Source of the DNA: an uncultured bacterium | GTDB taxonomy: Bacteria > AUK180 | Reading direction: 5' to 3' | Assembly (NCBI GenBank): GCA_937863565.1 | Contig: CALMGJ010000030.1 | Location: forward strand, 62,001 to 111,726 | DNA: 49,726 nt | In this document: piece after piece, positions 3-49,675 of the stretch | Layout: every line of letters begins with the position of its first letter | Position numbering within the stretch: position 1 is the stretch's first letter | Translations under genes and position numbers: made by a program | Notes under the pieces: model-generated | Seen by the model: the letters and a program-made list of their open reading frames with translations, nothing else | What the model was told of the DNA's origin: nothing | Database searches by the model: none

Positions 3-500
3 AACCCGGTGAGCGCGGGTATCTGTAAAAACCCAGGCAAATACGGGTATTCGAGCGCATCGTTCTATGAAGGGAACGAAGATAATAATGTTCAGAAGAT
101 GTATAAGATAAGCGTTTTTAGAGTTAAAACGGTATATATGAAGTTCTTAAATTCGGAAGAAATAACCTTTCCCGTGTATAAGGAAACCGTTGGAGACAAA
201 AAAAGATATCTGGAGAATCAAAAACGCAAGAAAGGCAGGGAGGGTGGAACTTATAAAGAAAGGCGCGACATCGTGTCGCGTAAGCAATCGATATTGAATG
301 AAACAAGGAAATTTCTGGATCATTACAAAATTACGCTGAACTATTTCAAAGCCAATCTTAAAAGTTCAGAAATGAAGATGGTGAAAATGAACTTGATCGA
401 TCACTTATTGAAATGCGGACACTATCGAGCAGGCATTGCCTGCGCTCTTGGGTGCTCAAGATCCTGGATAAGCAAAATTTACCAAAGAAAAAAGAAATAA
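3..500 (+). mobile_element. C-terminal part of a REP-associated tyrosine (Y1/HUH, RAYT-like) transposase with C-terminal HTH; 5'-truncated by the window edge
   Basis: The frame is open from base 3 and reads NPVSAGICKNPGKYGYSSASFY, matching the RAYT C-terminal motif NPVxAG-x5-YxWSS. The C-terminus IACALGCSRSWISKI looks like an HTH. The HUH motif would lie outside the window. Confidence 0.7.
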
Positions 501-541
501 GGCCGTAATTTGTCAACAATGTCAACCAACGTCCCTGAAAA

Positions 542-887
542 TGGTGGAGGCGGCGGGAATCGAACCCGCGTCCAAAGAAGAGCACAATACGATGTCTACA
601 TGTTTGTCCCGTCTACGGTTTTCCCCGGCCTTTACCGACGGTCAGGTGGTCCGGGATATCCCTTCGTTGATCTCGCGCCGGAATGCAGAAGGAAAATGCT
701 TCCGCCGCCAGCCGCTTGAGTATGAAGGGCTTTCGGAATAAACGGCAACCTCCTGAGCCCTTCCGCATTTATAAATTATGCGGCGTAAGCGTAATTATCA
801 GCGCTTAAAAGTTTTAACCCGTCGCAGTGGAATCATACTGACATGCAACCGTACCTGCTGCTACCCTGTCGAAACCGGTTCGCCCCC
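542..887 (-). ncRNA. ssrA: tmRNA; predicted tag (A)ADNYAYAA* encoded at 802..776
   Basis: Minus-strand 5' end GGGGGCGAACCGGTTTCGAC and 3' end GACGCGGGTTCGATTCCCGCCGCCTCCACCA; internal ORF GCT GAT AAT TAC GCT TAC GCC GCA TAA; adjacent to smpB. Confidence 0.97.
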
Positions 888-888
888 A

Positions 889-1344
889 TTATCTTCTGTT
901 CTTGTTGAGACGCGCGAGTTCGCGGTTAAGTTCTCTTTCGCGGATCTCATGTCTTCTGTCCCTTTGGGTCTTTCCGGTGACCAGCGCGATCTCGATCTTG
1001 GCGAACTGCTTTTTGAAGTAAACGGATACGGGAATGATGGTAAAACCTTTTTCCTCGACCTTCCTTCTCAAGCGGATCAGTTCGCGTTTATCCAGAAGAA
1101 GTTTCCTCGGCCTTTCGGGTTCGAGTTTCACGAAATCAGAACTTCTGTAATTGTCGATGCGCATGTTCACGATAAACAGCTCTGAGCCTGTAAAAGAGCA
1201 GTATGAACCCCTGAGAGATACCTTTTTATCCCGCAGGGACTTCACTTCCGACCCGGCAAGCACTATGCCCGCTTCGAATCTTTCGATTATCGTATAATTG
1301 AAAAGATCCTTGTTCTTGCAAACAATTACATTGCCGTCGTTCAT
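889..1344 (-). CDS. smpB: SsrA-binding protein SmpB
   Basis: FEAGIVLAGSEVKSLR and RPRKLLL motifs; abuts tmRNA. Confidence 0.97.
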   Translation of the reverse strand: MNDGNVIVCKNKDLFNYTIIERFEAGIVLAGSEVKSLRDKKVSLRGSYCSFTGSELFIVNMRIDNYRSSDFVKLEPERPRKLLLDKRELIRLRRKVEEKGFTIIPVSVYFKKQFAKIEIALVTGKTQRDRRHEIRERELNRELARLNKNRR

Positions 1345-1429
1345 ATTTTCTCTTAGAGAGTATAACAGAAAACGCTATAAATATCAATGTTTTCCGCTCG
1401 ACACCGCGCCTGCGGCGCCAAATTCACTA

Positions 1430-1458
1430 TTGAATTATTGATTAAATAATGGTATAAT
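1430..1458 (+). promoter_or_regulatory. Sigma70-type promoter, probably leaderless transcript
   Basis: TTGAAT(1430-1435)-N17-TATAAT(1453-1458) with extended TG; ATG 6 nt downstream and no Shine-Dalgarno. Confidence 0.7.
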
Positions 1459-1464
1459 AAAAAA

Positions 1465-2331
1465 ATGAAAAAAATGCTATTCCTTTTTTTCACTTTCCTT
1501 TTTTCCGTTATCCGCGCGGATTTTACCGTCCAGGTCGGCTCCCTGAACAGCGAAAATGCGGCAAAAAGGCACATTTCTACGCTTAAATCCAAGATAGATA
1601 CGGCCAAATGCTATGTTCTGAGGTCGGAATTGAAGGACGGACGTATCGTGTTCCGCGTCCGGTTCGGCCGGTTCAGGGATATGGCTTCTGCCGAGAAATA
1701 CAAGAGCTCATTCATTGATAAAGGCGTTGATTCCGTTGTTTCCCGATACGAAGATCCCGGCTACGAGATATCTTACACGGATGACGCCGGCCCGGCCCCT
1801 CTCCCAGATAATACCGAAGAAACTAAAATAATCGCGATAAAGGATACACCTGCCGGAATAATCAAGATCGATGCACCCGATGACACGAAGACCAAGATGA
1901 TCGAAGATAAAACCTTCGAATACAGACTCGGTATCATCAACAGGAAATGGCTCATTGCCGTCCAGCAGGAAAAAGAAAAAGAGATAATCGAGGAGCTTAT
2001 CACCGAATACACGGGATTGATCAATGAATACTTGGACAGCAGAGAAGTCTTCAAGGGATACTACATGATCGCTCATTGCTACCTTCAGATAGGGGATCTG
2101 GACATGACGCTGAGATACCTGGACCGCTCCATTGAATCCGCCCCGTCGGACGAAAAAGCAGCGATCATGTATGAGAAAGGTTTTATGGTCTATATCTATC
2201 AGCGCGATTTCCAGAGGGCGATAGATATTTTTAAAAGACTCTTTTTCGAATTCCCGGATTCGGCCTGGGCGCATGCGGCTCAGAACATTGTGAACGAAAT
2301 ACTCAAATACAAAGTATATATGGACCATTAG
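1465..2331 (+). CDS. Exported SPOR-domain and TPR protein
   Basis: Signal peptide; FTVQVGS...FRVRFGRF SPOR motif; C-terminal TPR ending FPDSAWA (CpoB/BamD-like). Confidence 0.8.
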   Translation: MKKMLFLFFTFLFSVIRADFTVQVGSLNSENAAKRHISTLKSKIDTAKCYVLRSELKDGRIVFRVRFGRFRDMASAEKYKSSFIDKGVDSVVSRYEDPGYEISYTDDAGPAPLPDNTEETKIIAIKDTPAGIIKIDAPDDTKTKMIEDKTFEYRLGIINRKWLIAVQQEKEKEIIEELITEYTGLINEYLDSREVFKGYYMIAHCYLQIGDLDMTLRYLDRSIESAPSDEKAAIMYEKGFMVYIYQRDFQRAIDIFKRLFFEFPDSAWAHAAQNIVNEILKYKVYMDH

Positions 2332-2339
2332 GAGGCGAG

Positions 2340-3638
2340 ATGAGCATTAAAGGCAACCTCTCATCAATACCGCTTGCAGACATCATGCAGCTCGTCGGCA
2401 TGGGCGAAAAGGTCGGATGTCTGAAGATAACGGGAAGCGATGATATCGGCTATATCTATTTCGTAAAGGGAAATATCGTATATGCTTATTCCGAGAACAA
2501 CAAGGTCACGATAGAGAAGATCAATCAGCATCAGAAGATCCTCGATGCAACAAAACTGAACTCTATAATAAAGGTCTCGCAGGAAAAAAAGCTAAATCCT
2601 CTCGAGATAATGGTGAAAGGCAATATCGTTAAGAAGGACGATATCGAGAATATAGTGAAGAACTACATACTAGGGATAACATACGGTTTCTTCAAACTCG
2701 GGAAGGGTGATTTCGAATTCCTCGAGAATGAACAGCCGAAGAATCCCCTCCTTCTCATCGAGGAGCATTACGGGAACGTGATAATGGAAGGTTCGAGAAG
2801 GATCGACGAAATCGAACTCGTAAAGAAGACCATCCCTTCGGATAAGACAAGGTTCATTGTTTTCATAACCGCGCTTGACAAACTTGACAGCATTAAACTC
2901 CGGGAAGATGAGAAGAAGATACTCGCGCTGGTTTCGAAAATGACAAATATCTACGAAATATCCAGACATGTGGAACTGGAGGAATTCGACCTCATGAAAT
3001 ACGTATTCGGCTTCGTGCAGTCTAAAATTCTCGAGGTCATCCCCCAGGAATCGTACGAGATCATCCAAGAGCATGTTGACCTTGCACGGTTCTATCTCGA
3101 ACGCGCGAATGAAGATGAGGCCCTGCGTGAAGCCATACGCGCTTTTTCTCTGGCGCCCACTGACGAGAACAATATCATGCTTCTGAAACTTTGTTTGAAG
3201 AACGGGACGCTACCCGAGGAAGTGAAGAGGCATTTCGTCCATCCTTATAAATTCGCACCCTATACCAAATACGGCCCGGAAACGCTTAAATTCATCAAAG
3301 AACAGCAACCCACTCTTAAGTCCGAGATGCCGAAACCTTCCTATGCGGGCAAACCGGCACCGGCCACGGCCGCACCGGCTGCTCCGAAGATAAATCCGAA
3401 AGAAGCCCTTATTAATGCAGCGAAATATTTAAGGGACGGCCAGTATCAGGATGCCGTGAATATTCTTGTTCAAACCGGAGAGATAAGGATCTCGAACTAT
3501 TACCTCATTCTCGGCAATTCATACATCAAACTCAATAAGATCAGGGAAGCCCATGACTGTTTCTCGAAACTTCTGGTTCTTGAACCGGAAAATGAAAAGG
3601 TGAAAAAACTCGTTGAAACACTGAAAACAAAAATATGA
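2340..3638 (+). CDS. DUF4388 (PatA-N-like) domain protein with TPR repeats
   Basis: N-terminal [17 protein letters not shown]...GCLKI...[13 protein letters not shown] and GDFEF...[14 protein letters not shown]-like C-terminus; GGAGG RBS. Confidence 0.8.
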
Positions 3639-3651
3639 TAAGGAGTCTTTC

Positions 3652-4659
3652 ATGACCGAAGAAAAGAAAAAAGTAACGGATGAGAAGAAAAAAGCGCTCG
3701 ATATGGCCGTATCCCAGATTGAGAAGAACCACGGAAAAGGATCGATCATGAAGCTCGGCGGCGAAGGGCATGTTAAGCTCTCCGCCATTTCCACCGGCTC
3801 GATAGGTCTTGACTCGGCCCTCGGTGTCGGCGGTATCCCGAGAGGCAGGGTCACTGAGATATACGGTATGGAATCCGGAGGAAAAACAACACTTGCACTC
3901 CATATCATCGCTGAATCTCAAAAGAACAACGGCATTGCCGCTTTCATCGACGCCGAACACGCACTGGACGTGGAATATGCAAAAAGGATCGGTGTTAATA
4001 TTGACGATCTCATCGTCAGTCAGCCCGATTTCGGCGAGCAAGCGCTTGATATCGCGGAAACGCTCGCAAGGAGCGGTGCGGTTGATGTTATTGTTATCGA
4101 TTCTGTTGCCGCTCTTGTACCTAAAGCGGAAATAGACGGAGAAATGGGAGATTCCCATGTCGGCCTCCAAGCAAGGCTCATGTCGCAGGCAATGAGAAAA
4201 CTCGTCTCCGTCGTAAATAAATCCAACTGCGCCGTTGTCTTCATAAATCAACTCAGAATGAAGATCGGTGTGATGTTCGGGAATCCCGAGACCACAACGG
4301 GCGGTTTTGCTCTTAAATTCTACGCGTCGATCAGAATCGATATAAGAAGGATAAGCACATTGAAAAACGGAGATACCGATGAAGGCATACGCGTACGCAC
4401 GAAGATCGTAAAGAATAAAGTTGCTACACCGTTCAAACAAACCGAATTTGATATCCTTTTCGGAAAAGGCATCTCGAAAAACGGCGAGATCATCGACATC
4501 GGATCAGAGCACAATATTATAGAGAAATCAGGTACTTGGTATTCATATGCCGGCCAGAGAATAGGTCAGGGAAGGAATAATGTGGCGGAATTTCTCGATT
4601 CGAATCCCAAGATCGCCTCAGAGATCGAGAAGAAGATCCGGGAAAAGATAGGTATCTGA
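3652..4659 (+). CDS. recA: Recombinase RecA
   Basis: GMESGGKTT Walker [40 protein letters not shown]. Confidence 0.99.
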
Positions 4660-13736: not shown

Positions 13737-13811
13737 TTGCTGCAAGATACCGGGTAAGAAAACATGGAAACGGGATATTGAAAAAAAGATGAAAAAATGA
13801 TACACAAATAA

Positions 13812-13937
13812 TATCCCGAGCTTTAAGCCCTAAAGCTGAACCGCCTTGAGGCCGGAGAGCTGAAGGCGGGCCATGGACTTGAAGCCGATAGGGGTAGCGG
13901 GGGAAACCCCTTACCCTCCCGTGCTTGGAAAGGGATA
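13812..13937 (+). ncRNA. Moco RNA motif riboswitch, P3-less (tungsten-cofactor-associated, Tuco/Wco-type) variant
   Basis: P1 TATCCC/GGGATA; P2 GCTTTAAG/CTTGAAGC enclosing CCTAAAG...CATGG (tetraloop-receptor-like); no P3; P4 GGGGTA/TACCCT capped by GGGG-GAAA-CCCC; P5 and 3' signature CTCCCGTGCTTGGAAAGG, against CTCCCGTATTTGGAAAGG recalled for the E. coli moaA leader. Confidence 0.88.
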
Positions 13938-13986
13938 CCTCAACGGAATCTCCCGGGTTCCAGGCTTTTATTCACAGGAGTGCTTT

Positions 13987-15918
13987 ATGATGAAAAGAAC
14001 GCTTGGGTTCTTCATGGTTTTTCTTATGCTCTCGCTCGCGGTATCTGCCGAGGACCTCTACATGGAGCCGGATGAGGTATACGATCTCGGAGTGATCGTC
14101 ATTTCCAATGATCAATGGAAGAATGTAGAAACGATAAGGTCCGAGGAGATCAGAAAGGGGAATCTCAACGATTTTCAGGACCTTCTTTCCATGGTGCCCG
14201 GAGTGAATTTCTCGATCGGAACAAAGGGCGAAGTATCGATCTTCATCCGCGGACTTGATAAATCCAAGATCAAGGTGATCATTGACGGCGTTCCCGTGAA
14301 CGACGCTTACTATGATACTACCGATACCGGCATGATCCCGGTCCATAATATAGAGAAGATAGAGATATACAAAGGCATCAATGCCGTCTCTTTCGGAAGC
14401 AATGCCCTGGGCGGAGTGATCAATATCGTAACAAAGAGGGACCCCGAAGGGCTCACGTTTAATCTTCAAAAGGGCACTTTCGCAGACAGGTTCTCCGCGG
14501 AGATGACCATGGGTTTCGGTTATTTCTTCGCTTCGGGGAGTTTCAATTCGGTCTATTCCAACGGATTCAAATTCGGGGGAAAGGAATCCGAGAATGATAT
14601 GGCCTTCGAAGACCTTCTTCCCGGGGAAGATGTCCTGCCGAACAGCTCTTCCGTCAAGAACGATCTTATGCTGAAAACGGGTTTTCTTTTCTCTGCGTTC
14701 GACAGCATCGTCTTCACGATGAATCTTATGAACAATAAAAGGGACCTTCCGTACCACATCTATGCCACGAAATCGGAAACCGCTTCCAGGATGTTCAGGG
14801 ACCCGAGATACTGGAGATTCCCGGTGTGGGATCAGGATGTTTTCTCGCTGGCCCTTAACAAACTGTTCATGGACAGGACGAAGCTCACCGTGACCACGGC
14901 CCATCTCAAGATATACAATCAGCTGGACATGTACATAGACAGAGAATTCACGGAGCTCGGGGAAACGGACATCTTCGACGATTACGTGAACAGCCTCAAT
15001 GTCATCGTTGAGGACGTATCATGGCTGAACCTCAAGCTCGGCTATATCTTCGAAGAGAAATATCATAAGAAAACGGCCGATATGTTCGCCTATGACGACT
15101 ATGAGGAGGAGGAGTTCACCTCCGTTTTCCACAATCTGTTCCTGATGGCCGAGAAGACGATCTCATTTTTAACGCTGAACGCGCAGATCTCTTCCAATAA
15201 GTTCATCTACGATGTGAGCGAGTGGAGCGACCTGAACTACTATATGAAAGCGAGCGGGCGTTTTATGGGGACGTTGCTGGCTCAGGTGCAGTACGGGCAC
15301 AAAACACAGTTCCCCGCCCTGAACCGTCTCGCCGATTCATTCTCAGCCGCGCTCGAACCGGAGAAATCGAACGAGGCGGACATTTCCGTGACATTCAACA
15401 AAGGAGGCCTGGGACTGAAGCTCTCATATTTCGCAAATGACGTTTTTGACCTCATTCACAGGGACGATAAGAGTCTTCCTTACTACAATATCGGGAAAGT
15501 GGCCTTCAGCGGCTTTGAAGCTGCGGTGAACTGGCAGTTCAGGATATTCTCGGCAGGACTTTCATATGAGGCGATCAAGGGAGTGAACGAAAGCGAGGAA
15601 GGCACATACGGGTCTTATATGACGGATATGCCTTATATACCGGTCAGCAAACTCGGCCTCAGGCTCGGTGTCAAGCTCTTCGGAATGGCCGATCTTACCT
15701 ATGAACTTTATCTGGCAGGCAAAAGTTACGAATACATCTCCGACGAGAGGATCGAAGTTCCATCCTACAGCCTTTCCAATGTTAACATAAATGTGGATCT
15801 TGCTCCGGTAAGAGTATTCATGAGGATCAATAATCTTCTTGATGCCTTCTACTACACGGAATACGGTTATCCGCAGCCGGGAAGGGAAGTAGTGTTCGGC
15901 TTGGAATTCGCAAAATAG
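13987..15918 (+). CDS. TonB-dependent outer-membrane receptor (start reassigned to ATG 13987)
   Basis: Signal peptide, TonB-box-like YDLGVIVIS, plug motifs IFIRG...IIDGVPV...IEKIEIYKG...FGSNALGGVINIVTK, C-terminal NNLLD..Y...PGREVVFGLEF; AGGAG RBS at 13976-13980. Confidence 0.95.
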   Translation: MMKRTLGFFMVFLMLSLAVSAEDLYMEPDEVYDLGVIVISNDQWKNVETIRSEEIRKGNLNDFQDLLSMVPGVNFSIGTKGEVSIFIRGLDKSKIKVIIDGVPVNDAYYDTTDTGMIPVHNIEKIEIYKGINAVSFGSNALGGVINIVTKRDPEGLTFNLQKGTFADRFSAEMTMGFGYFFASGSFNSVYSNGFKFGGKESENDMAFEDLLPGEDVLPNSSSVKNDLMLKTGFLFSAFDSIVFTMNLMNNKRDLPYHIYATKSETASRMFRDPRYWRFPVWDQDVFSLALNKLFMDRTKLTVTTAHLKIYNQLDMYIDREFTELGETDIFDDYVNSLNVIVEDVSWLNLKLGYIFEEKYHKKTADMFAYDDYEEEEFTSVFHNLFLMAEKTISFLTLNAQISSNKFIYDVSEWSDLNYYMKASGRFMGTLLAQVQYGHKTQFPALNRLADSFSAALEPEKSNEADISVTFNKGGLGLKLSYFANDVFDLIHRDDKSLPYYNIGKVAFSGFEAAVNWQFRIFSAGLSYEAIKGVNESEEGTYGSYMTDMPYIPVSKLGLRLGVKLFGMADLTYELYLAGKSYEYISDERIEVPSYSLSNVNINVDLAPVRVFMRINNLLDAFYYTEYGYPQPGREVVFGLEFAK

Positions 15919-16052: not shown

Positions 16053-16081
16053 TTGACTTTTAGAGCCTTTTTTGATAAAAT
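16053..16081 (+). promoter_or_regulatory. Sigma70-type promoter of the oxidoreductase-acd-etfBA-smc gene run
   Basis: TTGACT-N17-TAAAAT with extended TG, then an AGGAG RBS. Confidence 0.7.
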
Positions 16082-16106: not shown

Positions 16107-16754
16107 TTGAACGAACGACTCATAACCGACGGGGATCGCGAAGTCCTGAAAAAGGAATTCGAAACGATCTCGAACGATGTGGACATAAAGCTTGTCCCTT
16201 CTCCGGATAAGAACGACGAATATTCGGCTTTCACTTTAGGGTTCCTTTCGGAACTTGCCGAATTGAATCCGCGTATAAAACTGGAAGTAAATGCGCACGA
16301 TTCCGAGCTCGCCGGTAAAGAGAATATCAGCTCGTATCCGTATATCCTGCTCGGTTATGACAAAGGGTTTCATATAGAGTTCATGGGTTCCCCTGCGGGC
16401 TACGAGGCCCGGACACTAATAGACGATATCATAATGCTGGGAACGGGGGAGAGCGGACTTTCAACTTCCGCGAAGGGCAAGATAAAGGAAGTGCTGAGAA
16501 AAAGCACGATGCACGTATTCGTAACTCCGCAGTGCCCGTATTGTCCGGGTGCCGTAAAGCTTGCTCATGCTTTCGCTTTTGAGAACAAGCTGATCAGGGG
16601 TATCTGCGTAGAAGCAACGGAAAATGCCGAGATTTCGGACCGTTTCAATGTCTCTTCCGTACCGCAAACCGTTCTGAACGAAAGCCAGAAGCATATCTAT
16701 ATCGGCGCGCAGCCCGAGATGAAAATGGTTTCGGAATTGCTTTCTTATTTATAA
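16107..16754 (+). CDS. Protein disulfide oxidoreductase (AhpF N-terminal domain/PDO-like)
   Basis: FMGSPAGYE, FVTPQCPYCP.AV, SSVPQT; the first thioredoxin fold lacks CxxC. Confidence 0.88.
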   Translation: MNERLITDGDREVLKKEFETISNDVDIKLVPSPDKNDEYSAFTLGFLSELAELNPRIKLEVNAHDSELAGKENISSYPYILLGYDKGFHIEFMGSPAGYEARTLIDDIIMLGTGESGLSTSAKGKIKEVLRKSTMHVFVTPQCPYCPGAVKLAHAFAFENKLIRGICVEATENAEISDRFNVSSVPQTVLNESQKHIYIGAQPEMKMVSELLSYL

Positions 16755-49585: not shown

Positions 49586-49675
49586 GGAGAGGTGACCGAG
49601 TGGTTGAAGGTGCATGCCTGGAGAGCATGTGTACGGGAAACTGTACCCCGGGTTCGAATCCCGGCCTCTCCGCCA
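49586..49675 (+). tRNA. tRNA-Ser(GGA)
   Basis: Acceptor GGAGAGG/CCTCTCC-G-CCA, anticodon arm CATGC-CTGGAGA-GCATG, long variable arm GTACGG-GAAA-CTGTAC, T arm CCGGG-TTCGAAT-CCCGG. Confidence 0.98.

Follow-up and report, generated by a model that had tools for sequence, protein, structure and literature searches.

Background

The placement of a cofactor-sensing riboswitch in front of a TonB-dependent receptor (TBDR) that imports the sensed cofactor is a known bacterial design, typified by the cobalamin riboswitch and the vitamin B12 receptor BtuB, in which the sensing leader lies directly before a receptor of ~600-650 amino acids (aa). Caldithrix illustrates the logic of such a unit in an auxotroph, as it lacks B12 synthesis and carries a B12 riboswitch before btuB-btuF; a thiamine pyrophosphate (TPP) riboswitch paired with a TBDR, a unit of the same design, is mentioned for Caldithrix and Bacteroides in the same report (PMC5317091). 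Here we analyze a unit with this organization in a stretch of 49,726 nucleotides (nt) from an uncultured bacterium of the GTDB lineage AUK180 (contig CALMGJ010000030.1, positions 62,001-111,726), termed the window below, where an RNA of the molybdenum cofactor/tungsten cofactor (Moco/Tuco) riboswitch class directly precedes a stand-alone TBDR. We propose, with roughly even confidence and on the strength of sequence comparisons, that this unit might constitute a riboswitch-controlled, single-gene system for outer-membrane uptake of the preformed tungsten (W)- or molybdenum (Mo)-pterin cofactor, either free or carrier-bound. The design itself is already known, and it is the putative W/Mo cofactor cargo that is potentially unprecedented. 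Moco and Tuco are generally treated as being made by each cell for itself, owing to their lability.

Moco/Tuco riboswitches were reported to act on transporters, biosynthesis genes and enzymes, and the loss of their P3 stem was found to correlate with the use of the tungsten cofactor, which is a correlation rather than a demonstrated specificity (Regulski et al. 2008, PMC2408646). The RNA of the window belongs to the same riboswitch family, and its P3-less form fits the aldehyde ferredoxin oxidoreductase (AOR) conserved in the bacterial family studied here. In contrast to the described riboswitches, which control moaABCDE, modABC, tupABC and Mo/W enzymes, that of the window is placed to control an energised receptor in a genome devoid of those synthesis and oxyanion genes; the terms 'TonB' and 'outer membrane' have no occurrence in the main text of PMC2408646. 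The coenzyme-uptake classes in the part of Sun et al. (2013, PMC3766115) that names them are B12, thiamin, riboflavin, queuosine and folate, with none for Moco. Closer to the present case, ligand-gated channels of Pelobacter carbinolicus located near molybdopterin-binding proteins or 'molybdopterin' riboswitches were suggested to be ones that 'may transport metals' (Aklujkar et al. 2012, PMC3543383). One receptor clade unites the Desulfuromonadales, Geobacteraceae and Pelobacter-labelled loci discussed below, where Oxidored_molyb proteins and tetrapyrrole methylases are encoded nearby; the remark itself occupies one sentence, which offers no family definition, auxotrophy context or proposal of cofactor uptake.

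Two further lines of work are pertinent. The 'orphan molybdoprotein' genomes encode molybdoenzymes without a complete Moco pathway and mostly without a known Mo transporter (Peng, Xu and Zhang 2018, PMC6147048), which is the pattern seen in the family of the window; the sections of that paper on these genomes propose unfamiliar biosynthetic components or Mo-independent enzymes, not uptake, whereas the family studied here adds a putative cofactor-regulated importer. Caenorhabditis elegans takes up and uses dietary Moco made by bacteria (PMC9793310), a precedent for cofactor transfer, but in an animal and without a TBDR or riboswitch. Our search of the main texts of this literature turned up neither bacterial uptake of Moco/Tuco nor an uptake system composed of a Moco riboswitch and a TBDR, although relevant tables may be present in the supplements to the 2012 and 2018 papers. 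A first-pass annotation of the window, which was made by a model from the letters alone, had stated that no characterised bacterial system of this kind was known; the remark on P. carbinolicus softens that statement, which otherwise agrees with the main-text literature.

The riboswitch-receptor unit

The window derives from a metagenome-assembled genome (MAG; G000) of 2.27 Mb in 38 contigs, which is 95.5% complete. We compared it with the other species genomes of its family (seven in all, G000-G006), which together with two more represent its class (n=9); in what follows genomes, loci and contigs bear numbers prefixed with G, L and C, respectively, and the genus containing G004 and G006 is termed g2.

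An Rfam cmscan search recovered the aptamer (RF01055) at positions 13802-13951 on the + strand of the window, with 69.4 bits against a gathering score of 36 (E 9.2e-15, model positions 1-135). P1, P2 with a 21-nt insertion, P4 and P5 are visible in the alignment and the P3 columns are deleted; the core, which P1 closes, is kept, including CCUAA/AUGG in P2, the GAAA-capped P4 and the CCUCCC...GGAAAGG junction. Five orthologous RNAs of the family align as the window aptamer does, with the P3 columns deleted there too. The RNA thus combines the two marks of the Tuco type, namely the absence of P3 and an association with tungsten-cofactor genes, AOR being encoded in all seven family genomes. It is the sole RF01055 match of G000 in a whole-genome scan; Rfam scans revealed no Moco RNA at the AOR, formate dehydrogenase (FDH) or MobB loci of this genome, and no cobalamin riboswitch in the window.

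The receptor gene occupies positions 13987-15918 (+) and encodes a protein of 643 aa (P0001), in which domain searches identified a Plug domain (PF07715, 84.8 bits, E 7e-24) and a TonB_dep_Rec barrel (PF00593, 65.9 bits, E 8e-18). The protein begins with a signal peptide (residues 1-21, ...AVSA/ED), continues with the segment DLGVIVIS (residues 33-40), which by the consensus we take to be TonB-box-like, and with the Plug (residues 45-144), and ends in a 22-strand-type barrel; the motif W276-x-F-P-x-W281 is distinctive of the receptor family. Its nearest relative of known structure by sequence is BtuB (E 5e-26). However, it reaches none of the NCBIfam equivalog cut-offs, scoring 130.2 bits against 599.7 and 126 against 836 with the BtuB models (TIGR01779 and NF007926), 102.7 against 223.5 with a siderophore model (TIGR01783) and 131.2 against 316.85 with a haem model (TIGR01785), and its gene lies between those of a lipid kinase and a thioredoxin-fold protein, with no adjoining siderophore or haem genes. 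The unit hence differs from the BtuB system in the class of its aptamer, in the distance of its receptor from the BtuB model, in a motif of its own and in its putative cargo.

These results bear out much of what the first-pass annotation had proposed, namely a Moco-motif RNA in front of a 643-aa TBDR, with the landmarks CCTAAAG, CATGG, a GAAA-capped stem and CTCCCGTGCTTGGAAAGG (at 13917-13934) all present. The gap of 49 nt given there holds approximately with the end of P1 (3' strand) as the starting point; measured from where the Rfam match stops, it is 35 nt. Its description of the RNA as complete is right as regards the full-model match, but the missing P3 makes 'complete P3-less variant' the better term.

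Recurrence of the unit

A P3-less RNA lies directly 5' of an orthologous receptor in six of the seven family genomes (G000, G001, G002, G004, G005 and G006), these receptors being 37-41% identical to that of the window; the family genome scan detected neither RNA nor receptor in G003. The neighbours of the cassette vary by genus and include an epimerase with an aminotransferase, a methyltransferase, BioY, or pyridine-nucleotide oxidoreductases. Given its persistence amidst differing flanks, the RNA and the receptor travel as one unit.

To place this unit in a wider context, a profile of six receptors was used to collect 45 loci from the species-genome collection, of which 40 (L055-L094) were scanned with Rfam; the other five (L095-L099) are the weakest, plug-only matches, four labelled Acetobacter and one Thermoanaerobaculales. 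A Moco RNA is present at 15 of the 40 loci, and at 14 it lies upstream of the receptor on the same strand, whereas at L063 the RNA points the opposite way. The 14 comprise five family loci and nine from other lineages (L060, L061 (= G030), L062, L064, L070, L071, L076, L078 and L084). Among the latter, L062 is labelled Ca. Eisenbacteria, L064 Thermoanaerobaculaceae and L076 Holophagae, while L070, L071, L078 and L084 are of Geobacteraceae/Desulfuromonadales; Acidobacteriota are also among the cassette lineages, and some of the MAGs are unclassified. The RNA of L064 is marginal (36.1 bits) and that of L070 lies ~1 kb upstream of the receptor; two Desulfuromonadales/Geobacteraceae MAGs carry tandem P3-less aptamers before it (L071:2500-2811, L078:2493-2802). 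Certain RNA-less loci (L069, L073) offer less than 500 nt of upstream sequence. None of the 40 loci has a cobalamin riboswitch, and a relative in a Pelobacter-labelled MAG is preceded by a c-di-GMP-I riboswitch (L075:2384-2464).

In a quick maximum-likelihood tree (49 rows, midpoint root), from which six truncated receptors (L072, L077, L080, L081, L083 and L088) were left out, the RNA-linked receptors all fall within one group (SH-like approximate likelihood-ratio test 98), as three sub-clades. The RNA label requires 5 changes on this tree against a shuffled mean of 10.3, and none of 500 shuffles was as low. P3 is absent from the aptamers of the family and from those shown for Desulfuromonadales and Holophagae loci, and present in those of L060 and L062; therefore, the receptor clade is coupled to both aptamer types.

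Cofactor-dependent enzymes without detected cofactor synthesis

The one AOR-family enzyme of G000 (778 aa) is encoded between genes for a 4Fe-4S protein and a ThiF/MoeB-like protein (Fer4-AOR-ThiF), and AFOR_N, the AOR marker, is present in 7/7 family genomes. An NAD-type FDH cluster of G000 has the order NuoE-NuoF-FdhA-FocA-MobA-FdhD, with FdhA (898 aa) as the molybdopterin subunit. The synthesis genes present a very different picture: profiles for MoaA (Mob_synth_C), MoaC, MoaE and MoeA (MoeA_N) returned no match in G000, nor did those for the oxyanion-binding proteins ModA/WtpA (SBP_bac_11) and TupA (PBP_like_2). A tblastn search of G000 with MoaA, MoaB, MoaC, MoeA and MogA of relatives, one MoaE, two TupA and one TupB gave nothing real. 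The MoCF_biosynth matches found in every family genome first suggested MogA and proved to be CinA, which is the sole MoCF_biosynth protein of G000, so that the genome has no MogA-type protein. Class-wide, Mob_synth_C, MoaC and MoeA_N are each found in 1/9 genomes and MoaE in 0/9, and none of the four is present in G000, G001, G004, G005 and G006, which span three genera and are 69-96% complete.

In a cell given metal-loaded molybdopterin (MPT), MobA, aided by MobB, suffices for formation of the bis-pterin and the bis-molybdopterin guanine dinucleotide (bis-MGD) forms, and FdhD delivers the cofactor to FDH. MobA, MobB and FdhD, all kept in G000, are hence the set needed from metal-loaded MPT onward. 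Abutting MobB (L046:11742-12245, -) is a gene for a protein of 222 aa, P0122 (G000:C9:124244-124909; L046:12242-12910, -), which has no Pfam match and contains two internal '...DGY...' repeats; its structural neighbours in the Atlas are Oxidored_molyb-fold proteins (TM 0.70-0.81), and the P0122-MobB pair is kept in G001-G004. P0122 is thus a candidate cytoplasmic cofactor carrier, going by its predicted structure.

The first-pass annotation had named two observations as informative, namely Moco RNAs or Mo/W genes recurring beside receptor homologues, and W/Mo enzymes in a genome missing moaA and moaC, which would favour salvage. Both are seen: 14 of 40 loci are RNA-led and RNA-less relatives occur in Mo/W contexts (see below), while AOR and FDH are found alongside the absence of MoaA and MoaC, and also of MoaE, MoeA, ModA/WtpA and TupA.

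Expression platforms of the leaders

The g2 leaders contain three elements, the aptamer 3' GGAAAGG, a CCUUUCC-like element and a Shine-Dalgarno (SD) sequence within GGAGGAAA. When the aptamer segment is included in the folding, GGAAAGG pairs with CCUUUCC and the SD is free; when it is left out, CCUUUCC pairs with the SD. These alternative predicted pairings would amount to a ligand-OFF translational switch, as expected of feedback on an uptake gene. The leader of G002 retains the GGAAAGG-CCUUUCC pairing only, and in G005 the SD lies nearly within the aptamer.

In the window, a terminator scan and folds delineate a candidate platform at 13945-13971 (+), consisting of a weak terminator-like hairpin, GGAATCTCCCGGGTTCC, followed by AGGCTTTTAT. 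The hairpin (13945-13961) has 7 pairs, of which 3 are G-C, is followed by AGGCUUUUAU and recurs in minimum-free-energy folds; the scan yielded 4 terminator-like sites against 3.5 expected, so that the hairpin is not significant alone, and the z-score of the whole-leader fold, -1.27, is uninformative. It may function as a transcription terminator. No sigma-70-like promoter was found upstream of the RNA on the + strand between 13380 and 13802, and the SD of the receptor gene, AGGAG, is at 13976-13980 (+), 6 nt 5' of the ATG.

Partners of the receptor in other lineages

At L070, L071, L078 and L084 the RNA and receptor are followed by TonB, a Peripla_BP_2 protein of the BtuF/FhuD class and a FecCD permease, with an additional ExbD-TonB upstream at L070. 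These Desulfuromonadales operons resemble the BtuB/BtuFCD system in the addition of TonB, a BtuF-class protein and a FecCD/BtuC-class permease. Acidobacteriota loci instead have the receptor followed by a secreted ~355-aa Oxidored_molyb protein, which is 63-82% identical among L063, L064 and L076. In all, Oxidored_molyb proteins are encoded directly 3' of receptor relatives at L076:3046-4107, L063:4968-6032, L064:4981-6093, L065:5053-6216, L068:6589-7608, L075:5040-6869, L079:5005-6777 and L085:5113-6885. At L065 and L068 they lie directly 3' of an RNA-less receptor, and at L075, L079 and L085, whose receptors are also RNA-less, the domain is fused to a tetrapyrrole methylase. Other neighbours of RNA-less relatives include TupA (L065), MobA with a short HTH_1 regulator (L068), FmdE (L066), and NifH with a FeMo-cofactor-binding protein (L073). 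Each of the Oxidored_molyb partners bears a single CxxCH motif and an N-terminal signal that lacks the twin-arginine motif; such Sec-type export is puzzling if they bind the cofactor, unless the cofactor is met in the periplasm.

On the P3-bearing branch, a secreted ~400-aa protein is encoded 3' of the receptor (L060:5044-6258, L053:2400-3584); it is 88% identical between MAGs, has two CxxCH motifs and a 'VDGY' segment, and lacks a Pfam match. A DUF364/DUF4213 protein, a BtuF-class protein and a methyltransferase precede the RNA-less receptor relative of L090 (132-2831). Likewise, L108 (G002:C7:1-6099) encodes MoaC-MoaB and then an NMT1-type binding protein, a permease, an ATPase and a DUF364 ('metal chelation') protein. 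The DUF364-type modules of L108 and L090 may represent an undescribed module for handling Mo/W.

Oxyanion routes behind Moco RNAs provide a useful comparison. In the unrelated genome G055, L052 (G055:C4:50400-60400) comprises a Moco RNA, Porin_O_P, TupA, a permease and an ATPase/TOBE protein (open reading frames (ORFs) 428-4496), so that an anion porin forms the outer-membrane leg of a tungstate system under riboswitch control, and this genome has MoaE. TupA also lies 3' of a Moco RNA at L015 and L017.

Energisation and the inner-membrane step

G000 encodes four Plug-domain proteins and has three TonB_C matches, by which a TonB energising partner is available. Its single BtuFCD-like ATP-binding cassette (ABC) system, on C11, adjoins another TBDR and lacks an Rfam match; it is a candidate for the inner-membrane leg, though nothing ties it to the receptor of the window. 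In the sister family, a P3-less Moco RNA (2718-2842, -) at L023 (G007:C369:1-3500) heads genes 2661-2 (-) for an energy-coupling factor (ECF)-type module, which consists of a 182-aa S-unit without a Pfam match, an ABC ATPase and a CbiQ T-unit, followed by MobB. Among 17 metagenome loci with relatives of this S-unit, a Moco RNA is found at one, the closest (L116, 60% identity; RNA L116:170-294), and the ECF S- and T-units of G007 have no tblastn match in G000.

Proposed function and its alternatives

The retention of cofactor users together with the absence of synthesis and oxyanion transport in G000 points to the uptake of ready-made cofactor. This is supported by the company of the receptor clade elsewhere, which is machinery of the cofactor/chelate type, not of the oxyanion type; we also count in its favour that the nearest solved structure is a cofactor importer, BtuB, and, for riboswitch-repressed uptake, the OFF design of the g2 leaders and the availability of TonB. 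Taking as observed the RNA and the receptor, the conserved linkage between them and the genes present in the genomes, we infer a cargo, a direction of regulation in the window and an inner-membrane step as follows. When the cytoplasmic pool is full, the cofactor would bind the P3-less aptamer and receptor synthesis would be switched off, by sequestration of the SD in g2 and perhaps by the weak terminator in the window. At a low pool the receptor would be made, energised by one of the TonB systems of G000, and would bring the cofactor into the periplasm, from where an inner-membrane carrier, possibly the single BtuFCD-like ABC system, would complete import. MobA, MobB, FdhD and perhaps P0122 would then tailor the cofactor and deliver it to AOR and FDH. 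The larger claim, that the receptor might admit the finished W/Mo cofactor across the outer membrane as part of a salvage pathway, the first in bacteria, in a lineage living on the Tuco/Moco of its neighbours, we regard as falling just short of an even chance.

Several observations weigh against cofactor uptake. Free Moco/Tuco is chemically labile, and systems of TonB, BtuF-like and FecCD proteins carry metal chelates as readily as cofactors. A dedicated inner-membrane carrier was not found in G000; the expression platform of the window is weak, with its weak hairpin in place of the g2-type pairing; and 25 of the 40 loci scanned with Rfam have no Moco RNA. The gene absences rest on MAGs (95.5% complete for G000 and 69-96% for its relatives), and these kin are not independent. 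Within the family, separate contigs of G002 encode MoaC-MoaB and MoaA, with the cassette still present, and G003, the genome without a detected cassette, has MoeA and MogA. The contigs bearing these genes look native, with matching GC content and housekeeping neighbours, and the family looks like a lineage part-way through losing the Moco pathway. Outside it, the ten genomes with RNA-linked receptors mostly make Moco (MoaC 8/10, MoeA_N 10/10); therefore, the receptor is no general substitute for synthesis and the argument from auxotrophy is limited to the family of the window. At ~25% identity, the cargo need not be identical across the clade. Such facts leave room for the main alternative, in which the receptor imports a W/Mo chelate (a 'tungstophore' or 'molybdophore') or oxyanion, the riboswitch tunes metal acquisition to cofactor sufficiency, and the synthesis genes missing from the family are an assembly or binning gap or are replaced by unfamiliar enzymes. 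A high-affinity tungsten chelate route under control of the cofactor is a natural design, since Moco RNAs mostly control metal transporters such as modABC and tupABC, as is echoed by TupA at L015 and L017 and by Porin_O_P with TupABC in G055. The receptor-TonB-Peripla_BP_2-FecCD arrangement is the architecture of siderophore systems; at L084 the RNA-receptor unit is directly preceded by two TupA genes with a Moco RNA of their own, a layout just as compatible with metal scavenging; DUF364/DUF4213 'metal chelation' genes occur near the relative in L090 and near MoaC/MoaB in G002; and the prototrophy of most non-family carriers, as well as MoaA/MoaC beside the cassette in G002, agrees with metal import. 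However, with no MoaA, MoaC, MoaE, MoeA or MogA-type protein in G000 and four relatives, the imported metal would have no known use, and five MAGs of three genera would need identical gene losses. Moreover, G000 lacks an inner-membrane route of the ModA/TupA type, the oxyanion route of G055 uses an anion porin, not a TBDR, and metallophore synthesis genes are not seen beside the receptor in the family. We consider metal import less likely than cofactor uptake in the family, though a serious rival to it. The first-pass annotation had offered a chelate or a pterin cofactor or precursor as the cargo; that range is supported, and within it the finished cofactor is favoured for this family, as an even prospect.

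Import of a pterin precursor, i.e. cyclic pyranopterin monophosphate (cPMP) or metal-free MPT, we deem improbable. Moco is less stable than precursors such as cPMP, and the family includes partial pathways (MoeA and MogA in G003; MoaA, MoaC and MoaB in G002), but G000 has neither MoaE nor MoeA/MogA for cPMP conversion or metal insertion, nor a W/Mo oxyanion transporter, and G003, the sole genome able to use MPT, has no detected RNA or receptor. The riboswitch, furthermore, responds to the metal-bearing cofactor, not to precursors, in the portions of Regulski et al. (2008, PMC2408646) bearing on this point. Least probable of all is a cargo unrelated to Mo/W, such as iron, haem or B12 for the Fe-S-rich AOR/FDH, whose import the riboswitch would only align with cofactor status, or the chance acquisition of a riboswitch by a generic TBDR. 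It is true that the best NCBIfam and PDB similarities of the receptor are to haem, B12 and siderophore receptors, that distant relatives are automatically named 'vitamin B12 transporter' (JGI) and that L085 adjoins CobT/CobS; yet no equivalog cut-off is reached (TIGR01779, 130 against 599.7), and none of the 40 loci has a cobalamin riboswitch. Four labelled phyla or more contain the pairing of RNA and receptor, which involves aptamers both with and without P3; on the tree the RNA label shows clustering (5 against 10.3 changes), and RNA-less relatives lie in Mo/W contexts.

If uptake of the finished cofactor is indeed the function, the lineage would have kept the receptor, a cofactor-sensing switch, MobA, MobB, FdhD and an Oxidored_molyb-fold carrier, and abandoned synthesis and metal insertion; in that case the receptor clade, together with Sec-exported partners that bear a molybdopterin-binding domain and BtuFCD-like transporters, would form a widespread system of cofactor sharing among anaerobes. 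A cofactor-sensing riboswitch with a putative importer, in genomes without the pathway and the transporters, makes cross-feeding of Moco/Tuco among bacteria directly testable, and salvage might account for the 'orphan molybdoprotein' genomes, of which several hundred were reported in 2018. The analysis also defines a receptor clade found in Geobacteraceae, Acidobacteriota and several candidate phyla, for which a dedicated 'tungstophore' receptor would likewise be new.

Flanking genes and other features of the window

The 5' neighbour of the unit is a YegS-type lipid kinase. On the 3' side, after a gap of 188 nt, there follow a thioredoxin-fold protein and then acyl-CoA dehydrogenase and EtfBA genes. 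The first of these, a protein disulfide oxidoreductase (PDO) with a TTG start at 16107 (16107-16754, +), scores 184.8 bits against a cut-off of 185 with TIGR02187 (PDO_seleno_TRX). A promoter-like site of this unrelated gene at 16053-16081 (+; TTGACT-17-TAAAAT, 10/12, with a TG extension) would mark the 3' boundary of the unit. The initial claim that the next gene has its own promoter is accordingly matched by a site, but the scan, with 3 promoter-like sites seen against 3.9 expected by chance, is weak evidence alone; the stand-alone status of the receptor is better supported by the differing downstream genes of its relatives. Elsewhere, the window contains a transfer-messenger RNA (tmRNA) at 542-887 (-; 142 bits), overlapped by a weaker permuted-tmRNA match at 776-952 (-), and a tRNA with a long variable arm at 49586-49672 (+).

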